Shown here piece by piece: positions 1 through 62,963 of a stretch of 64,000 bases of DNA. The translations under genes were made by a program, and so were the position numbers. The notes under the pieces were generated by a model, which worked only from the letters and a program-made list of their open reading frames with translations, did not search any database and was not told the origin of the DNA. The DNA is taken from assembly GCF_013315695.1 (NCBI RefSeq), contig NZ_CP054353.1; one strand, 5' to 3'. Position 1 is the first letter of the stretch. Every line of letters starts with the position of its first letter. Origin of the DNA: Escherichia coli. GTDB taxonomy: Bacteria > Pseudomonadota > Gammaproteobacteria > Enterobacterales > Enterobacteriaceae.

Positions 1-48
1 GCCAAAGCAATAAGTCCCAAACTAAACCCGGGGAGTTTTTTCAGTTTC
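1..48 (-). CDS. Partial ORF start at window edge, product unknown
   Basis: ATG (reverse complement) at 46-48 reading out of the window; only 16 codons (MKLKKLPGFSLGLIAL...) visible; not recognised. Confidence 0.2.
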
Positions 49-449
49 ATAGATTAACCATCCATTCATTGGATTAACAAACATTCCTGGTCAAATAACC
101 TATGAGTTCAGATTACCAAAACGGAGGGTAAAGACAAAAACAAAAGCACAAGAAATTTAAATAGATAAACAGCGACAATACATAAATGATAAATAAGTCA
201 GCATTATCATTTTTCACCTTATTTTCATGACATTGATCACTTTGGAGTGACGAATTTGTTTAACAAATAACTCTTCGACATCAAAATTATTAATAGTTGC
301 CATTGGAATTATTTCGATGATATATAAAAACAACTGTGATAACACCAGGGTTGACAACTATTTGCGCAATAATACCTTTCCTTCAATGATCCAGGCGTTC
401 ACTGCCAGCAACCCATTCAGCCGCATACTGACAGTGAGAAACTGAAAGT

Positions 450-553
450 TTAGTGCTGATCCCTGTGGCTGACGAGTCTTTCCCTTAATCGATTAACCAG
501 ATTGATCGCCAGCCAAACAAGGGCATTAAGCAAATTTATCGTCACAAGCACTT
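450..553 (-). pseudogene. ymgF: ymgF 3' fragment (codons 41-72), separated from the 5' part by IS2
   Basis: Minus-strand translation (E)[33 protein letters not shown] continues in frame from the fragment at 1871-1990; together they give a 72-aa small membrane protein matching recalled YmgF. Confidence 0.7.
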
Positions 554-1456
554 TGGATTTGCCCCTATATTATCACTTAACCCATTACAAGCCCGCTGCC
601 GCAGATATTCCCGTGGCGAGCGATAACCCAGCGCACTATGCGGATGCCATTCGTTATAATGCTCGAACGCCTCTGCAAGGTTCTTTGCTGCCGTTAACCC
701 GTCTGGTTTGGGCATGATACTGATGTAGTCACGCTTTATCGTTTTCACGAAGCTCTCTGCTATTCCGTTACTCTCCGGACTCCGCACCGCCGTGTTCTTC
801 GGTTCAAGTCCCAACATCCGGGCGAACTGGCGTGTTTCATTAGCCCGGTAGCATGAACCATTATCCGTCAGCCACTCCACTGGAGACGACGGAAGATCGT
901 TGCCGAAGCGGCGTTCCACCGCTCCCAGCATGACGTCCTGTACTGTTTCACTGTTGAAGCCGCCGGTAGTGACCGCCCAGTGCAGTGCCTCACGATCACT
1001 GCAGTCCAGCGCGAACGTGACACGCAGTCTCTCTCCGTTATCACAGCAGAACTCGAACCCGTCAGAGCACCATCGCTGATTGCTTTCTTTCACGGCCACT
1101 CTGCCTGTATGTGCCCGTTTCGATGGCGGTACAGCAGGTTTTCGCTCAAGCAACAGCGCATTCTGGCGCATGATCCGGTAAACACGTTTGGCATTGATCG
1201 CAGGCATACCATCAAGTTCTGCCTGTCTGCGAAGCAGCGCCCATACCCGACGATAACCATACGTGGGCAGCTCTCCGATAACATGGTGTATACGGAGAAG
1301 CACATCCGTATCATCAGTGTGACGACTGCGGCGGCCATCCATCCAGTCATCGGTTCGTCTGAGAATGACGTGCAACTGCGCACGCGACACCCGGAGACAA
1401 CGGCTGACTAAGCTTACTCCCCATCCCCGGGCAATAAGGGCGCGTGCGCTATCCAC
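542..1456 (-). CDS. insD: IS2 transposase InsD (OrfB), variant C-terminus; ORF terminates 12 bp outside the IS end
   Basis: 304-aa ORF matching recalled IS2 InsD except the tail ...[12 protein letters not shown] (canonical recalled as ...LSDNRCLEI). Confidence 0.85.
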
Positions 1457-1870
1457 TTTTTTGCCCGTCCATATTCAACGGCTTCTTTGAGGAGTTCATT
1501 TTCCATCGTTTTCTTGCCGAGCAGGCGCTGGAGTTCTTTAATCTGCTTCATGGCGGCAGCAAGTTCAGAGGCAGGAACAACCTGTTCTCCGGCGGCGACA
1601 GCAGTAAGACTTCCTTCCTGGTATTGCTTACGCCAGAGAAATAACTGGCTGGCTGCTACACCATGTTGCCGGGCAACGAGGGAGACCGTCATCCCCGGTT
1701 CAAAGCTCTGCTGAACAATTGCGATCTTTTCCTGTGTGGTACGCCGTCTGCGTTTCTCCGGTCCTAAGACATCAATCATCTGCTCTCCAATGACTAGTCT
1801 AAAAACTAGTATTAAGACTATCACTTAAATAAGTGATACTGGTTGTCTGGAGATTCAGGGGGCCAGTCTA
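554..1870 (-). mobile_element. IS2: IS2 insertion sequence, 1317 bp, flanked by 5-bp direct target duplication CACTT (549-553 and 1871-1875)
   Basis: Terminal sequences TGGATTTGCCCC (554 onward) and GGGGGCCAGTCTA (ending 1870) match IS2 ends; insC and insD ORFs inside; identical 5-bp flanks. Confidence 0.9.
1414..1779 (-). CDS. insC: IS2 InsC (OrfA) transposase regulatory subunit
   Basis: Track ORF contains [26 protein letters not shown]...; start adjusted to conserved Met (121 aa). Confidence 0.9.
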
Positions 1871-1990
1871 CACTTCTCCCAGCCCGGTACTGGGTTTTGC
1901 AATAAGGATGACCAGGAGAGTGATCAGCATAAATGCAATGGAAAAGATGATATAGAGAGTGAAATAATCCAGATTATTACTATTGTTCAT
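1871..1990 (-). pseudogene. ymgF: ymgF 5' fragment (codons 1-40) truncated by the IS2 insertion
   Basis: Manual minus-strand translation MNNSNNLDYFTLYIIFSIAFMLITLLVILIAKPSTGLGEV ends at the IS2 left end. Confidence 0.7.
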
Positions 1991-2121
1991 GCTACTAATG
2001 GCAATCCTGTCAAAACTTTCAAACAATTATAGCAAACAAAATAATGAACAATAGTAACAAGAGGCAACGAGCTAATTAGCTGTCTATAATTACACCGCAC
2101 CATGGCCTTACTGATCAATTT

Positions 2122-3645
2122 TCACTCAACCACAACCTTCACCTTCGGTTTAGAAAGGATAATTTTGACCAGGTCGATGTATGTAACAGGTTTATAGAAA
2201 TAATAACCCTGCTGAAATGTGATATTATTTTGGTTCAGATAATCAAGTTGTTCTTTCGTTTCGACACCTTCAGCGACGATACTGATCGAAAGTTTACGCG
2301 CCAGATCCAATACACAATCCAGAATTCGGGTTGATTCTGGGTCTGCGTTGACGCGGCCAACGAAACTGTGATCAATTTTGATATAATCAATATGCAGGTC
2401 ATGCAGATAAGAAAGCCCTGAGTAGCCAGTACCGAAATCATCCAGCGCGATGACAAAACCATTTTCATGCAGAATGTTCAACCGCTGAACCAGACTTTCA
2501 TCAACATTTAATGGCTCACGCTCGGTGACTTCCAGAACGAGGTTTAAATCGCGGCGGGTAAAACTGTCACGGTAATTTAAGCACTCGTCGACAAACGTCG
2601 GCGAAATAATATGCGAGGCGCTAAAATTAATTCCAATATGAAAACCTTCCGGCAGTTTACTCGAGATAGCGTTCATCTGTCTGGCAACCTGATTCATCAG
2701 GCTTTGCGTAAGCGGAACGATTAATCCGGATTTTTCAGCAAGTGGAATAAATGCCGCGGGTGATATATATCCACCGTGAAGTTGTTTCCAGCGGGCTAAC
2801 ACCTCAACTCCCCGCAATGTCCCTTCCCGACCATTTACCACAGGTTGGTAAAAAGGGACGATCTCCCCATTATTTATTGCCCGTCGCAGGATCTCTTCAG
2901 GCGTTGCGCATTTATTGAAATACCTATCAAGCAGCAAAGCAGCGGCGCAGGCGATTAACAGAATAAATATCAAAATCCCAAAGCCTTTATCGATAAGTCT
3001 GTAGAAGCTAAAGAGTGGCGGCGGGTTAAAGATAATAGTGAAATGATATTTTGTGGAGTGAACCTTCTCGGTATAGGGATAATGTCCATTAAGCGTCATC
3101 ACATCACCCGTTGGTCCAATAATGTCATCCGCCACGCGTAATACATACCTTACCCCTTTCAAGGGTACATTAAGCGCCCCGCGAATATGCTGATCACTTA
3201 TCGTAACCAAAATGCGCGTATCTGCAAATTGGCTCTGATAGAGCAGGATAGGTAATCTATTAACGGTGTCGATTGCCGGAGCCAACAGTAAATTACTGTC
3301 CGGGACAACAGGAATACGAGACAGCAGGACCCGATTCCCCGGTAAGGATGTACACCAGACCGTTCCCTGTTTGAGAATGATGATTGTGCGCAGGTGAGGT
3401 TTCAGAGCTGCTTCAGTGCCAAGCTGATATTGCTCCTCGAGGTCGCATTCCTTCCCGGCAATGTTAACCGCTGTTTGAGTCGCCTGTGACGCTTCTTCAA
3501 GTATATGATTGATATTGTTGGCGGCATATCTCGCTCCTGCCAGGTACTCTGCTTTTGCGGAATACCAGAGCTGGATGTTCAAAATAGCGACACCGGTTAT
3601 AAACAAGCATATCGCAACGAGGATGGGTATGAGTGTATTGCGCAT
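2122..3645 (-). CDS. pdeG: CSS-domain cyclic di-GMP phosphodiesterase (EAL domain) PdeG/YcgG
   Basis: Track ORF 2122..3687; N-terminal TM, periplasmic CSS region, C-terminal EAL domain; start set at MRNTLIPILV (507 aa). Confidence 0.85.
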   Translation of the reverse strand: MRNTLIPILVAICLFITGVAILNIQLWYSAKAEYLAGARYAANNINHILEEASQATQTAVNIAGKECDLEEQYQLGTEAALKPHLRTIIILKQGTVWCTSLPGNRVLLSRIPVVPDSNLLLAPAIDTVNRLPILLYQSQFADTRILVTISDQHIRGALNVPLKGVRYVLRVADDIIGPTGDVMTLNGHYPYTEKVHSTKYHFTIIFNPPPLFSFYRLIDKGFGILIFILLIACAAALLLDRYFNKCATPEEILRRAINNGEIVPFYQPVVNGREGTLRGVEVLARWKQLHGGYISPAAFIPLAEKSGLIVPLTQSLMNQVARQMNAISSKLPEGFHIGINFSASHIISPTFVDECLNYRDSFTRRDLNLVLEVTEREPLNVDESLVQRLNILHENGFVIALDDFGTGYSGLSYLHDLHIDYIKIDHSFVGRVNADPESTRILDCVLDLARKLSISIVAEGVETKEQLDYLNQNNITFQQGYYFYKPVTYIDLVKIILSKPKVKVVVE

Positions 3646-3828
3646 TTGCTTGTCCCGGCCAAAGGGTTTAATACATGAAAATGCCATTCATTCGCTCGCG
3701 CTGGCATCTACAGAGAGCATGGTAGAGAGCATAAGAAATATCCACGCCGAAGATAAAATTTTCTCCATCTTGATCTAACCCATTAATTATTGAGCATAAT
3801 GTAGATAGAATAAAATAAATTAGGCGGG

Positions 3829-3882
3829 ATATCAGGTGTCAAGAATGGAGAGCGAGAACTCTCCATTCTTGACACCTGATAT
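3829..3882. repeat. Perfect 24-bp inverted repeat with 6-nt loop; probable bidirectional terminator or protein-binding palindrome between ymgC and pdeG
   Basis: ATATCAGGTGTCAAGAATGGAGAG-cgagaa-CTCTCCATTCTTGACACCTGATAT read directly. Confidence 0.8.
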
Positions 3883-3976
3883 TGCGGACATATTAAGAAA
3901 GCATAACGCCTGAAATGCTCACTTTGCACCAGCATGGTAATACAGCTGATGTTTATTCTATAACCTTACTCAAGTT

Positions 3977-4225
3977 CTAAGAGATCACGGATTCCCTGTC
4001 ATTAATAATGATATCCGTTAGTGTAGTCTTATGCATTTCAATGTACTGCAATATTTGCAGATAGAGATCAGAAAGAATCACACTGGTTTCATCTTTTAAA
4101 CGCAAGCGTAAAGCCTGATCAATAATATAACTATCAACATACCCATGCGTCATGAACACCTCCCTCTCGAGATTTTTAAACAAAGCACATTGCAAAATAA
4201 ATCTCTCTGGGATTGAATTATTCAT
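3977..4225 (-). CDS. ymgC: YmgC small protein (ycgZ-ymgA-ariR-ymgC operon)
   Basis: 82-aa ORF MNNSIPERFILQCALFKNLERE... matches recalled YmgC. Confidence 0.85.
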   Translation of the reverse strand: MNNSIPERFILQCALFKNLEREVFMTHGYVDSYIIDQALRLRLKDETSVILSDLYLQILQYIEMHKTTLTDIIINDRESVIS

Positions 4226-4337
4226 GTCAGCCTCGTAGAAATATTAACCCAATAAAATTATGCTGTGTATAGTCTAAAGCGACAGACAAAAATAAGATGA
4301 ATGAGTTTTCTATAAATTTATACTTAATAATTAAAAG

Positions 4338-4604
4338 TCACATATCATCCGCTGTGTATCGCAACACGATTTCCAGTGTTTTTCTGATCACATCAGCTTT
4401 GAGGATATCATTTGTTGTTTCCAGGGAGTGTATCAGACTTAAGATAATATTTTTATTATTAACATTATCGCCTGAAAGCATTAAATTGGTGACAGCCTGC
4501 CCTAACACAGCTGACTCTTCTTCTAACAAATTACCCGAACTGCGAAAGTAACTTGATAACGCTTTATCAGCTATTGCATTATGAATAGTAGTATCTTCAA
4601 GCAT
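4338..4604 (-). CDS. ariR: AriR/YmgB, biofilm and acid-resistance regulator
   Basis: 88-aa [23 protein letters not shown]... matches recalled AriR. Confidence 0.85.
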
Positions 4605-4632
4605 AGTAACCTCTCATCTTACTTATGAAATT

Positions 4633-4905
4633 TTAATGTATTCTGTTTATTTTCTTACCATTGAAAATACTTTTATTGTCAGTTATCGCTGTTCTTCTGT
4701 TTGGCCCTCCTGTATCACTGTTACTAAAATCACGAATTATGCTGTCAATTAAATCTCGTCGGAAAGCATTTTCCTCAACAGATTTCATTACGAGTAATTG
4801 CTTAATAAGAGTCTGCAACGAAAAATTTATCTTCATGCGCAGTATCTGGAGCACCGCCTGGCCAGTAATTTCATATTTTGTACTTTCATTATCAGATGTC
4901 TTCAT
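4633..4905 (-). CDS. ymgA: YmgA small regulatory protein
   Basis: 90-aa ORF MKTSDNESTKYEITGQAVLQ... matches recalled YmgA. Confidence 0.85.
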   Translation of the reverse strand: MKTSDNESTKYEITGQAVLQILRMKINFSLQTLIKQLLVMKSVEENAFRRDLIDSIIRDFSNSDTGGPNRRTAITDNKSIFNGKKINRIH

Positions 4906-8974: not shown

Positions 8975-9298
8975 ATGAAGTGGATAGTAATTGACACGGT
9001 AATTCAACCTACATGCGGTATATCTTTTTCAGCCATATGGGGTGATATGAAAATGATCATCTGGTATCAATCCACTATATTTCTTCCTCCTGGCAGGATA
9101 TTTACACCGGTTAAGTCTGGTATTATCCTTAAGGATAAAGAATATCCTATTACTATTTATAACATCGCACCATTCAACAAGGATTTATGGAGTTTACTCA
9201 AAAGCAGTCAAGAGTGTCCTCCAGGAGAAAGCAAAATAACAAATAAATGTTTGCATAATAGTTGCATTATAAAAATATGCCCATATGGGCTCAAGTAA
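8975..9298 (+). CDS. iraM: Anti-adaptor protein IraM (RssB inhibitor, stabilises RpoS; PhoP-regulated)
   Basis: 107-aa [26 protein letters not shown]... matches recalled IraM/YcgW. Confidence 0.9.
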
Positions 9299-9400: not shown

Positions 9401-10651
9401 TTACATGTTCTTGATGATTGCATCACCAAACTCTGAACATTTCAGCAGTTTAGCGCCTTCCATCAGACGTTCGAAGTCATAGGTTACGGTCTTGGCATTG
9501 ATTGCGCCTTCCATACCTTTAACAATCAAGTCTGCGGCTTCAGTCCAGCCCATATGGCGTAACATCATCTCAGCGGAGAGAATAATAGAGCCTGGGTTTA
9601 CTTTGTCCTGACCGGCATATTTCGGCGCAGTACCGTGGGTGGCTTCAAACAGGGCGCATTCGTCACCGATGTTTGCGCCAGGGGCGATACCGATACCGCC
9701 AACCTGCGCTGCCAGGGCGTCAGAAATGTAGTCACCGTTCAGGTTCATACAGGCGATAACATCATATTCAGCCGGACGCAGCAGGATCTGTTGCAGGAAT
9801 GCATCAGCAATCACGTCTTTAATGACGATCTCTTTGCCGGTGTTCGGGTTTTTAACTTTCAGCCACGGGCCGCCGTCGATCAGTTCACCGCCAAACTCTT
9901 CACGCGCCAGCTGGTAGCCCCAGTCTTTAAACGCGCCTTCGGTGAACTTCATGATGTTGCCTTTGTGCACCAGGGTCACAGAGTCACGATCGTTAGCAAT
10001 TGCGTATTCGATCGCTGCACGAACCAGACGTTTGGTGCCTTCTTCAGAACACGGCTTAATACCGATACCGCAATGTTCCGGGAAGCGAATTTTCTTCACG
10101 CCCATCTCTTCACGCAGGAATTTAATCACTTTCTCAGCGTCGGCAGAGTCTGCTTTCCATTCGATACCCGCATAAATGTCTTCCGAGTTTTCACGGAAGA
10201 TAACCATATCGGTCAGTTCAGGGTGTTTAACCGGGCTTGGAGTGCCCTGATAGTAACGTACCGGACGCAGGCAGATGTAGAGATCCAGTTCCTGGCGCAG
10301 AGCAACGTTGAGAGAGCGAATACCGCCACCAACCGGAGTGGTCAGCGGGCCTTTGATGGCAACGCGATATTCACGAATCAGATCAAGGGTTTCAGCAGGT
10401 AGCCAGACATCCTGACCATAAACCTGTGTGGATTTTTCACCGGTGTAAATTTCCATCCAGGAGATTTTACGCTCGCCTTTATAGGCTTTCTCGACTGCAG
10501 CGTCGACCACTTTCAGCATGGCTGGGGTTACATCTACACCGATTCCATCACCTTCAATGTAAGGGATAATCGGATTTTCAGGAACGTTGAGTTTGCCGTT
10601 TTGCAGGGTGATCTTCTTGCCTTGTGCCGGAACAACTACTTTACTTTCCAT
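9401..10651 (-). CDS. icd: Isocitrate dehydrogenase (NADP)
   Basis: 416-aa [41 protein letters not shown]...; full length, not interrupted by prophage. Confidence 0.97.
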
Positions 10652-11232: not shown

Positions 11233-11682
11233 ATGGATACTACCGAAGAACGCAATGGAACATATTTCTACAGAGGACACCCGAACCTGTCCAAAATAGA
11301 ACTACTCAACGTCATATTCCTTGAAGAATTCTGTAAGGAATTGGGGATTGATTCGGTATCAGGTGCAGCAATCTTATCTGGTCAACCGTGGCTGGGTACA
11401 AGAGCGAAGCCGCAAGGGGCAACCCTGGGAACAAGTGTTGTCTCAAAGTATGCGCGTATACTGATGAGAGATGCACGCATGCCTTTTGGTATTTCTGTTC
11501 ATACACCAGTGGGTGTAAGGATGCAGAAATCTAATAAGCTTGCTGCAATTATCGCTCGTTGGGTCCCGTGGATTGGTTGGGCTTCACTGTCGATGAGTCT
11601 TTACAGGGTTTCGACTCGTACCCAGGAAAAATACAATCTGATTGCCAAACCTCAAGACCGTATTAAGTGGACTTCCTTCTAA
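11233..11682 (+). CDS. Hypothetical basic protein (149 aa), first gene of an inserted two-gene cassette; candidate toxin or effector
   Basis: Track ORF; GGAGTG upstream; net charge about +9 by residue count; no signal peptide or TM segment; not recognised. Confidence 0.6.
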   Translation: MDTTEERNGTYFYRGHPNLSKIELLNVIFLEEFCKELGIDSVSGAAILSGQPWLGTRAKPQGATLGTSVVSKYARILMRDARMPFGISVHTPVGVRMQKSNKLAAIIARWVPWIGWASLSMSLYRVSTRTQEKYNLIAKPQDRIKWTSF

Positions 11683-12017
11683 TGGCGACAACAATCACAG
11701 ACGAAGTTTTAGCACTGTTCCGTGATGAGATTCCAGGTTATCAGGATGACCACGGGAAGGAAATTCCGTTAGAACTGGACTCTGATTTGTTCGACTATCC
11801 ACGAGATGATTTAGAGGACGCTATACGGAAATACAAAGAGAGGTTTGGGATTAACCTGGATAATCTGGACTGGTCTTTGTACCTTCCATGGGAGTCTGCA
11901 CCATTGCTTCAACGATGGTTCAAGCTCAAGCGGGAAGAGGTAGAAACAACACGTTTACCGTTAACTGTACGGATGTTTGCAGAATCAGCAGAAGCGGGAA
12001 AATGGCTGTATCAGTAG
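11682..12017 (+). CDS. Hypothetical acidic protein (111 aa), second gene of the cassette; candidate immunity protein or antitoxin
   Basis: ATG overlaps the upstream stop (TAATG at 11680-11684); net charge about -10 (24 D/E versus 14 K/R); an in-frame ATG at 11667 is an alternative start. Confidence 0.6.
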   Translation: MATTITDEVLALFRDEIPGYQDDHGKEIPLELDSDLFDYPRDDLEDAIRKYKERFGINLDNLDWSLYLPWESAPLLQRWFKLKREEVETTRLPLTVRMFAESAEAGKWLYQ

Positions 12018-60015: not shown

Positions 60016-60735
<720 letters not shown>

Positions 60736-61320
60736 ATGCCTAAACTTATTTTAGCCTCCACTTCGCCCTGGCGTCGCGCTCTTCTGGAAAAACTGCAAAT
60801 CTCTTTTGAATGTGCAGCACCAGAGGTCGACGAAACCCCACGCAGCGACGAATCACCGCGACAGTTGGTGCTTCGACTGGCACAAGAAAAAGCGCAATCT
60901 CTGGCGTCACGTTATCCGGATCATTTAATTATTGGTTCAGACCAGGTATGTGTTCTTGATGGCGAAATCACCGGTAAACCGTTAACGGAAGAAAATGCCC
61001 GTCTGCAATTACGCAAAGCCAGCGGCAATATCGTCACCTTCTATACTGGACTGGCGTTGTTTAATTCGGCGAATGGGCATCTGCAAACAGAAGTGGAGCC
61101 TTTTGACGTCCATTTCCGTCACCTGAGCGAGGCGGAGATTGATAATTACGTGCGTAAGGAGCATCCCCTGCACTGCGCGGGTAGCTTTAAGAGTGAAGGA
61201 TTTGGCATTACGCTGTTTGAGCGTTTAGAGGGGCGAGATCCTAACACGCTGGTTGGTTTACCGCTAATCGCGCTGTGTCAGATGTTACGTCGGGAAGGGA
61301 AAAACCCGCTGATGGGATAG
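60736..61320 (+). CDS. yceF: Maf-like nucleoside triphosphate pyrophosphatase YceF
   Basis: Track ORF 60697..61320; start set at [21 protein letters not shown] (194 aa). Confidence 0.9.
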
Positions 61321-62391: not shown

Positions 62392-62963
62392 GGTGGGCGA
62401 TTCTAATTAGCCAACAGGATTCGCGCCACTCATTTTTCTATGCTTATATTTAGTTTTGCACCTTATTACTTCACTACGTGATCACTTTATTGATGGTTAT
62501 TAAACCAATCACCAGCAAGAAGTGAAAAAACTGTGAGTAAGCAGGTGATAAATGGTAAAAGTCATCTTGCTATAACAAGGCTTGCAGTGGAATAATGAGG
62601 CCGTTTCCGTGTCCATCCTTGTTAAAACAAGAAATTTTACGGAATAACCCATTTTGCCCGACCGATCATCCACGCAGCAATGGCGTAAGACGTATTGATC
62701 TTTCAGGCAGTTAGCGGGCTGCGGGTTGCAGTCCTTACCGGTAGATGGAAATATTTCTGGAGAGTAATACCCAGTCTGTTTCTTTGATAATTGCGCTGTT
62801 TTTCCGCATGAAAAACGGGCAACCGACACTCTGCGCCTCTTTGAGCTGACGATAACCGTGAGGTTGGCGACGCGACTAGACACGAGGCCATCGGTTCACA
62901 CCCGGAAAGGCGTTACTTTGCCCGCAGCTTAGTCGTCAATGTAAGAATAATGAGTAAGTTACG
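62392..62963 (+). promoter_or_regulatory. rne promoter region and long structured 5' UTR (established site of RNase E autoregulation)
   Basis: 572-bp non-coding region upstream of the rne ATG; transcript start not mapped. Confidence 0.55.

Follow-up and report, generated by a model that had tools for sequence, protein, structure and literature searches.

A 14-bp deletion in the right inverted repeat of an IS2 copy inserted in ymgF in a clonal Escherichia coli lineage

The small membrane protein gene ymgF is interrupted by an IS2 element in the genome that supplied the window (the whole 64,000-base stretch of DNA analysed), and this IS2 copy lacks 14 bp of its right inverted repeat (IRR). The reading we favor, to which we assign a probability of about 0.85, is that IS2 inserted once in ymgF in the ancestor of a clonal lineage, probably with neutral effect, and that the IRR loss followed in the window's genome alone, giving a copy that is predicted to be immobile. 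The ymgF::IS2 allele is already known from the public annotation of four sister genomes. The deletion at the donor end is absent from an earlier reading of the locus made from the letters alone (the sequence-only reading); judged by the genomes compared here, it appears to be the only new detail of the locus and private to the window's genome.

Boundaries of the IS2 element and the interrupted ymgF gene

The features of the interrupted locus are as follows.

554..1870, minus strand: IS2, 1317 bp, transposase genes on the minus strand, left inverted repeat (IRL) at 1870 and IRR at 554; from alignment to K-12 IS2A
549..553, no strand: first copy of the target-site duplication, CACTT, abutting the IS2 right end; from the sequence
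1871..1875, no strand: second copy of the target-site duplication, CACTT, abutting the IS2 left end and forming part of ymgF codons 39-40; from the sequence
1829..1870, minus strand: IRL, 42 bp, complete, differing from K-12 IS2A at positions 32 and 42; from sequence and alignment
554..580, plus strand: IRR remnant, 27 of 41 bp; from alignment, with IRR length and domains from PMC3299598
1414..1779, minus strand: orfA (IS2 InsC/TnpA repressor), 121 aa, identical to K-12 InsC1
1456..1462, minus strand: A6G (AAAAAAG) programmed -1 frameshift motif joining orfA and orfB, intact; role from PMC3299598
542..1456, minus strand: orfB, catalytic part of the OrfAB transposase, 304 codons, with an altered tail; from the open reading frame and NF006918
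1871..1990, minus strand: ymgF 5' fragment, codons 1-40 (MNNSNN...GLGEV); 'YmgF, incomplete, missing C-terminus' in relatives in RefSeq
450..548, minus strand: ymgF 3' fragment, codons 41-72 (LVTINLL...SHRDQH) and stop; 'YmgF, incomplete, missing N-terminus' in relatives in RefSeq

The IS2 right end starts at 554 as TGGATTTGCCCC..., and the element ends at 1870 with ...GGGGGCCAGTCTA, the reverse complement of the left end IRL, TAGACTGGCCCCC; read from 1870 on the minus strand, the left end is TAGACTGGCCCCCTGAATCTCC. Both of these terminal sequences are found just once in the 64-kb stretch, where chance predicts none, and no second IS2 copy or extra IS2 ends were found within the window. The sequence-only reading had identified the element as IS2 flanked by a perfect CACTT direct repeat, and both points hold: the repeat copies abut the IS2 ends, and the element differs from K-12 IS2A (NC_000913.3 381260-382590, 1331 bp) by 7 substitutions over 1317 aligned bases and one 14-bp gap. 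The probability that 5 bp would match at both ends by chance is ~1/1024. K-12 IS2A is likewise flanked by a 5-bp duplication (ATTAC), so that the 5-bp CACTT is the expected IS2 signature.

The coding content points the same way. OrfA scored 276 bits on the NCBIfam profile NF006928 ('IS2 repressor TnpA', cut-off 229), and OrfB scored 709 bits on NF006918 ('IS2 transposase TnpB', cut-off 597), matching profile positions 1-296 of 301. orfB lies in the -1 frame relative to orfA. The window copy and K-12 IS2A share OrfA, the terminal sequences, a 5-bp duplication and the position of the A6G motif (element position 409), but K-12 IS2A has the full IRR and an OrfB tail reading RCLEI, whereas the window copy has the 14-bp loss and IGANPKCL. 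OrfB also carries C152S relative to K-12 IS2A, a substitution common to the window copy and its sister genomes, whose IS2 is otherwise identical. The window copy thus shows near-identity to the reference, OrfA and OrfB with their frameshift, and the 5-bp target duplication; of the complete 42-bp IRL and 41-bp IRR described for IS2 (PMC3299598), it has the whole IRL but an IRR without positions 19-32. On this comparison it is best described as a damaged member of the IS2 family and not as a different element.

The target gene is equally well defined. From an ATG at 1990, ymgF codons 1-40 read MNNSNNLDYFTLYIIFSIAFMLITLLVILIAKPSTGLGEV (minus strand, 1990..1871). The first three IS2 left-end bases form a TAG (1870..1868) that ends the 5' fragment immediately after codon 40; codons 41-72 and the stop lie at 548..450, beyond a 1322-bp interruption made up of the IS and one repeat, so YmgF has no uninterrupted reading frame. 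ymgF is a pseudogene in the window's genome. A 72-aa ORF split after codon 40 is what the sequence-only reading had described, and it had set in advance, as its test, that removing the IS and one CACTT copy should leave a continuous ymgF. Excising 554..1875 does so, giving a 219-nt ORF that encodes the 72 aa quoted there. The reconstructed protein is 100% identical to WP_001065862.1 (from strain 2014C-3075, in which ymgF is annotated as intact) and scores 141 bits on NCBIfam NF041587 (cell division-associated protein, cut-off 100) across profile positions 1-72 of 72. In the alignment to K-12 ymgF that had been proposed as a further check (b4520, YP_588447.1), 5 of 219 nt differ and 70 of 72 residues are the same (N67S, Q72H).

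The empty site was reconstructed as 449 bp by joining window 350-553 to 1876-2120; it is identical at 449/449 positions to one contiguous stretch of strain 2014C-3075, and at least 80% of it lies in one contiguous place in 5008 of 5426 complete E. coli genomes. The gene order pdeG-ymgF-ycgH is also that of K-12 and relatives, so ymgF occupies its conserved position. The insertion call is decisive because a known gene is exactly restored on excision.

A hydropathy scan places two hydrophobic segments in YmgF, at residues ~9-31 and ~40-58, and IS2 falls between them. The 40-residue remnant is still encodable, retains the complete first hydrophobic segment and ends cleanly at the TAG, while no start signal is evident in the 3' fragment. 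Directly before that fragment, the target duplication restores the GTG of codon 40 (549-551, minus strand). The resulting 33-codon ORF (450..551), which would encode the second hydrophobic segment, is a mechanical one that shows no ribosome-binding site or promoter, and we do not claim it as a gene. Full-length YmgF cannot be made; at most the 40-aa remnant is encoded. The 'natural knockout' of the sequence-only reading therefore stands as regards disruption of full-length YmgF, but goes further as regards function: we infer the loss from the sequence, and the remnant, with its first hydrophobic segment, could retain residual or altered activity.

Carrier genomes and the neighborhood of ymgF

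The same insertion, at the same site and in the same orientation, is present in four RefSeq genomes: MSB1_4I (NZ_LR898874.1), AF3 (NZ_OZ547117.1), AF14 (NZ_OZ546925.1) and NZ_OZ546911.1. These came from a search of 5426 complete RefSeq E. coli genomes, a set outside which the window's own genome lies. All four match window 350-2120 in a single piece, with 99.2% identity over 1785 bp, and the entire difference consists of 14 gap positions. PGAP annotates them with two genes for 'cell division-associated protein YmgF, incomplete' around an 'IS3-like element IS2 family transposase'. They share with the window the CACTT duplication, the variant of the IS2 sequence and the genes on either side; they differ from it in having a full 1331-bp IS2, an intact IRR and the normal OrfB stop. 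MSB1_4I is from a rectal swab in Australia, and AF3 and AF14 are from blood cultures in the UK.

Similarity extends well beyond the insertion. AF3 is base-for-base identical to window 1-4800 apart from the deletion, and over the 1785 bp that match window 350-2120 there is no difference between AF3 and MSB1_4I. Against the whole 64,000-base window, MSB1_4I shows three SNPs (6888, 32064 and 48602) and the single 14-bp gap. These SNPs fall in the bluR-bluF spacer (6888), the ycfT-lolC spacer (32064) and a third codon position of ptsG (48602). AF14 has 6 mismatches to the window over 21.8 kb. AF14 also has no counterpart of window 1-310, and the annotation gives its autotransporter gene as lacking the N-terminus, although ymgF::IS2 is kept; its bluF is annotated as frameshifted, which may be a sequencing error. 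Because MSB1_4I and the window differ by only three SNPs in 64 kb, the sequences indicate that ymgF::IS2 is one inherited event in a clonal lineage. IS2, an IS3-family element that moves by copy-out/paste-in, would have entered ymgF once, in the ancestor of this human-associated E. coli lineage, and would in doing so have duplicated the 5-bp CACTT and cut ymgF between its two hydrophobic segments.

Were the site an IS2 hotspot, the five genomes might instead have acquired the insertion independently. Other lineages do carry IS2 copies that inserted independently close to ymgF, in pdeG or at one of at least two ycgH sites, and 62 of the 5426 genomes have IS2 within ~1.4 kb of ymgF, the four ymgF::IS2 carriers included. 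The carriers, however, share site, orientation, duplication, IS2 variant and near-identical flanks, and no IS2 at the ymgF site with different flanks was found among the 5426 genomes, in which the only single-piece full matches were the four carriers. We therefore consider repeated insertion extremely unlikely.

Genomes of other lineages with independent IS2 insertions near an intact ymgF include ACN002, 2 HS-C, S1-NGR-02-A and 201609. One of the nearby insertions is in pdeG, where kdgR and not the rest of pdeG is annotated just past IS2, and at least two sites are in the ycgH/autotransporter gene. The common orientation of these insertions reflects search bias, as only same-strand pieces were joined.

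Two genes flank the interrupted locus.

2122..3645, minus strand: pdeG (cyclic-di-GMP phosphodiesterase), intact, directly upstream of ymgF; from the open reading frame and the annotation of relatives
1..50, minus strand: 5' end of an ECIAI39_1904-family autotransporter adhesin gene, at the ycgH position, cut by the window edge; from the AF3/MSB1_4I annotation WP_001571261.1

The sequence-only reading had placed IS2 directly downstream of pdeG on the same strand, in agreement with the position of pdeG on the minus strand immediately upstream of ymgF. The mechanical pdeG ORF (2122..3687, 521 aa) is 14 codons longer than the one that begins at the relatives' start (3645, 507 aa), probably owing to an in-frame upstream ATG. 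The adhesin gene has its start codon at 50..48, and its minus-strand sequence there is ATGAAACTGAAAAAACTC. It runs in the same direction as IS2 and ymgF, starting ~500 bp downstream.

Elsewhere in the window, iraM (8975-9298) is the immediate neighbor of icd (9401-10651, minus strand). In K-12 the e14 prophage sits at icd, so its absence from the window follows from this arrangement. A gene pair annotated as belonging to the STM2901 and DUF1493 families lies between rluE and icd, at about 11233-12017. At gathering score, Rfam matched the window in only two places, the SraB sRNA (60574-60742, minus strand, 209 bits) and the 5' UTR element of RNase E (62603-62939, plus strand, 260 bits), both expected for this chromosomal region.

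YmgF is described in PMC4446571, which cites Karimova et al. 2009, as a 72-aa integral membrane protein that emerged from a two-hybrid screen with FtsL and localizes to the septum; in that account, its overexpression suppresses an ftsQ(Ts) mutant, and deletion of ymgF in K-12 gives no growth or division phenotype. The characterization of YmgF in the sequence-only reading, as a non-essential inner membrane protein associated with division, agrees with this description. YmgF has many two-hybrid partners, among which, according to PMC7648144, there may be false positives. A literature search for ymgF together with IS2 returned nothing relevant. Because the K-12 deletion is reported to be without growth or division phenotype, the simplest reading is that ymgF::IS2 is a neutral or near-neutral natural null allele, most likely just inherited.

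On the other hand, the insertion could have been selected, either through the YmgF(1-40) remnant or through IS2 read-out toward the adhesin gene, with the end deletion then locking the state in. Such selection would fit the persistence of the allele in five isolates, from the UK and Australia and from blood and rectal swab; the remnant, with its complete first hydrophobic segment and clean stop; and the shared direction of IS2, ymgF and the adhesin gene. Persistence within a clone, however, requires no selection, and AF14 retains the insertion though the 5' region of its adhesin gene is gone. When 1-2300 was scanned for promoter and terminator patterns, the promoter-like sites numbered 3 in total, an uninformative yield versus the 3.3 expected by chance; all were on the plus strand and none on the minus strand that carries ymgF and the adhesin gene. 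Given also the account of the phenotype-free K-12 deletion in PMC4446571, selection seems very unlikely. A more specific proposal, that the insertion is adaptive in an extraintestinal E. coli clone because the remnant alters the divisome or because IS2 alters expression of the ECIAI39_1904-type adhesin, with the 14-bp loss as a first fixing step, is in our judgment a long shot.

The 14-bp deletion in the right inverted repeat

The IS2 copy is 1317 bp long versus the canonical 1331 bp, and the 14 bases TCCAGACATCTGTT are gone from the IRR (positions 19-32 of 41). Read from the outside inward, the canonical IRR is TGGATTTGCCCCTATATT TCCAGACATCTGTT ATCACTTAA, and that of the window is TGGATTTGCCCCTATATT ATCACTTAA. 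The outer positions 1-18 and the inner positions 33-41 are thus retained, joined at window 571/572, with the inner block shifted 14 bp outward. A TT on both sides of the gap means that the deletion boundaries can slide by up to two bases. Within the reading of a single inherited insertion, the 14 bp would have been lost later and in the window's genome only, possibly via slippage at this 2-nt TT microhomology, which is too short to establish the mechanism.

The junction was sought widely. A 60-nt query across it found no match among 9837 IS2 right ends in the 5426 complete E. coli genomes, nor among 1518 IS2 right ends on PLSDB plasmids, with a maximum coverage of 73% in both sets; other IS2 right ends match the query only inward of the deletion point. 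An exact 29-mer across the junction likewise had no match in GTDB species-representative contigs or in JGI metagenome contigs.

A gap of this kind could also arise as an artefact of assembly, consensus calling or polishing, the real genome then having the intact 1331-bp IS2 found in MSB1_4I and AF3. That the window is otherwise almost identical to MSB1_4I and that the junction was found nowhere else searched are both compatible with an artefact, as is the presence of many IS2 copies in such genomes (7-18 matching places per record), a complication for both assembly and polishing. But the missing bases form neither a homopolymer nor a simple repeat, and are therefore unlike the errors typical of long or short reads; the deletion is absent from every other IS2 copy in the searched genomes, so mis-mapping had no template; and the remaining element is base-perfect relative to those of the relatives. 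An artefact is accordingly unlikely.

The deletion also changes the end of OrfB: its five C-terminal residues, RCLEI, give way to IGANPKCL, and the reading frame now runs past the IS end to a stop in ymgF DNA (542-544). A fusion of OrfB to the YmgF C-terminus was considered and ruled out, as orfB enters the flank out of frame with ymgF and reaches its stop after three flank codons (KCL*).

Predicted mobility and significance

IS2 transposition is described as a two-step process, in which a figure-of-eight is followed by a minicircle and the right end is the sole donor end (Lewis et al. 2012, PMC3299598). The same source divides both repeats, the 42-bp IRL and the 41-bp IRR, into a cleavage domain and a protein-binding domain, and reports that single-base deletions at IRL position 14, 26 or 29 abolish minicircle formation; its mutational data for the inner binding domain come mostly from the IRL or from the IRR B element, a different lesion from a 14-bp deletion. 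The transposase-binding domain spans IRR positions 12-41, and the 14-bp loss takes most of it, including a CCAGACA block that is conserved in the IRL-IRR alignment. In our own reading of that alignment, the CCAGACA block would be element II by position, the variable bases after it element C, and ATCACTTAA element III.

The loss may also affect expression from the circular intermediate. The junction promoter needs a 17-bp spacer, which is created by the 1-bp minicircle spacer. With TAGACT (IRL positions 1-6) as the -10 box, the -35 box would by our reading be IRR positions 17-22, TGGAAA; in the window copy this hexamer becomes TGATAA. Because the loss hits the sole donor end, the binding domain and this putative -35 box, the window copy is probably unable to form the figure-of-eight or minicircle or to act as donor, and would be fixed in place.

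OrfAB with a C-terminal GFP fusion is reported in PMC3219604 to be as active in vivo as the native protein, and the altered OrfB tail is for this reason probably tolerated. The transposase with its altered 8-residue tail may thus remain able to mobilize or otherwise work on IS2 copies elsewhere in the genome, even if its own element is immobile.

The ymgF::IS2 junction is a marker of a small clonal lineage (4/5426 complete RefSeq E. coli genomes, with the window's genome as a fifth carrier), and the 14-bp end deletion is a marker of one isolate. Beyond strain typing, the value of the insertion is slight; it is an ordinary IS2 insertion in a dispensable small gene. The loss of YmgF would provide a natural null allele of a divisome-associated protein, for which laboratory deletions exist already. 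If the deletion is real, the locus is a natural case of an IS copy decaying to an immobile remnant that is possibly still a source of transposase, and it would offer a ready in vivo test of the published IS2 right-end maps, which are in vitro or plasmid-based.
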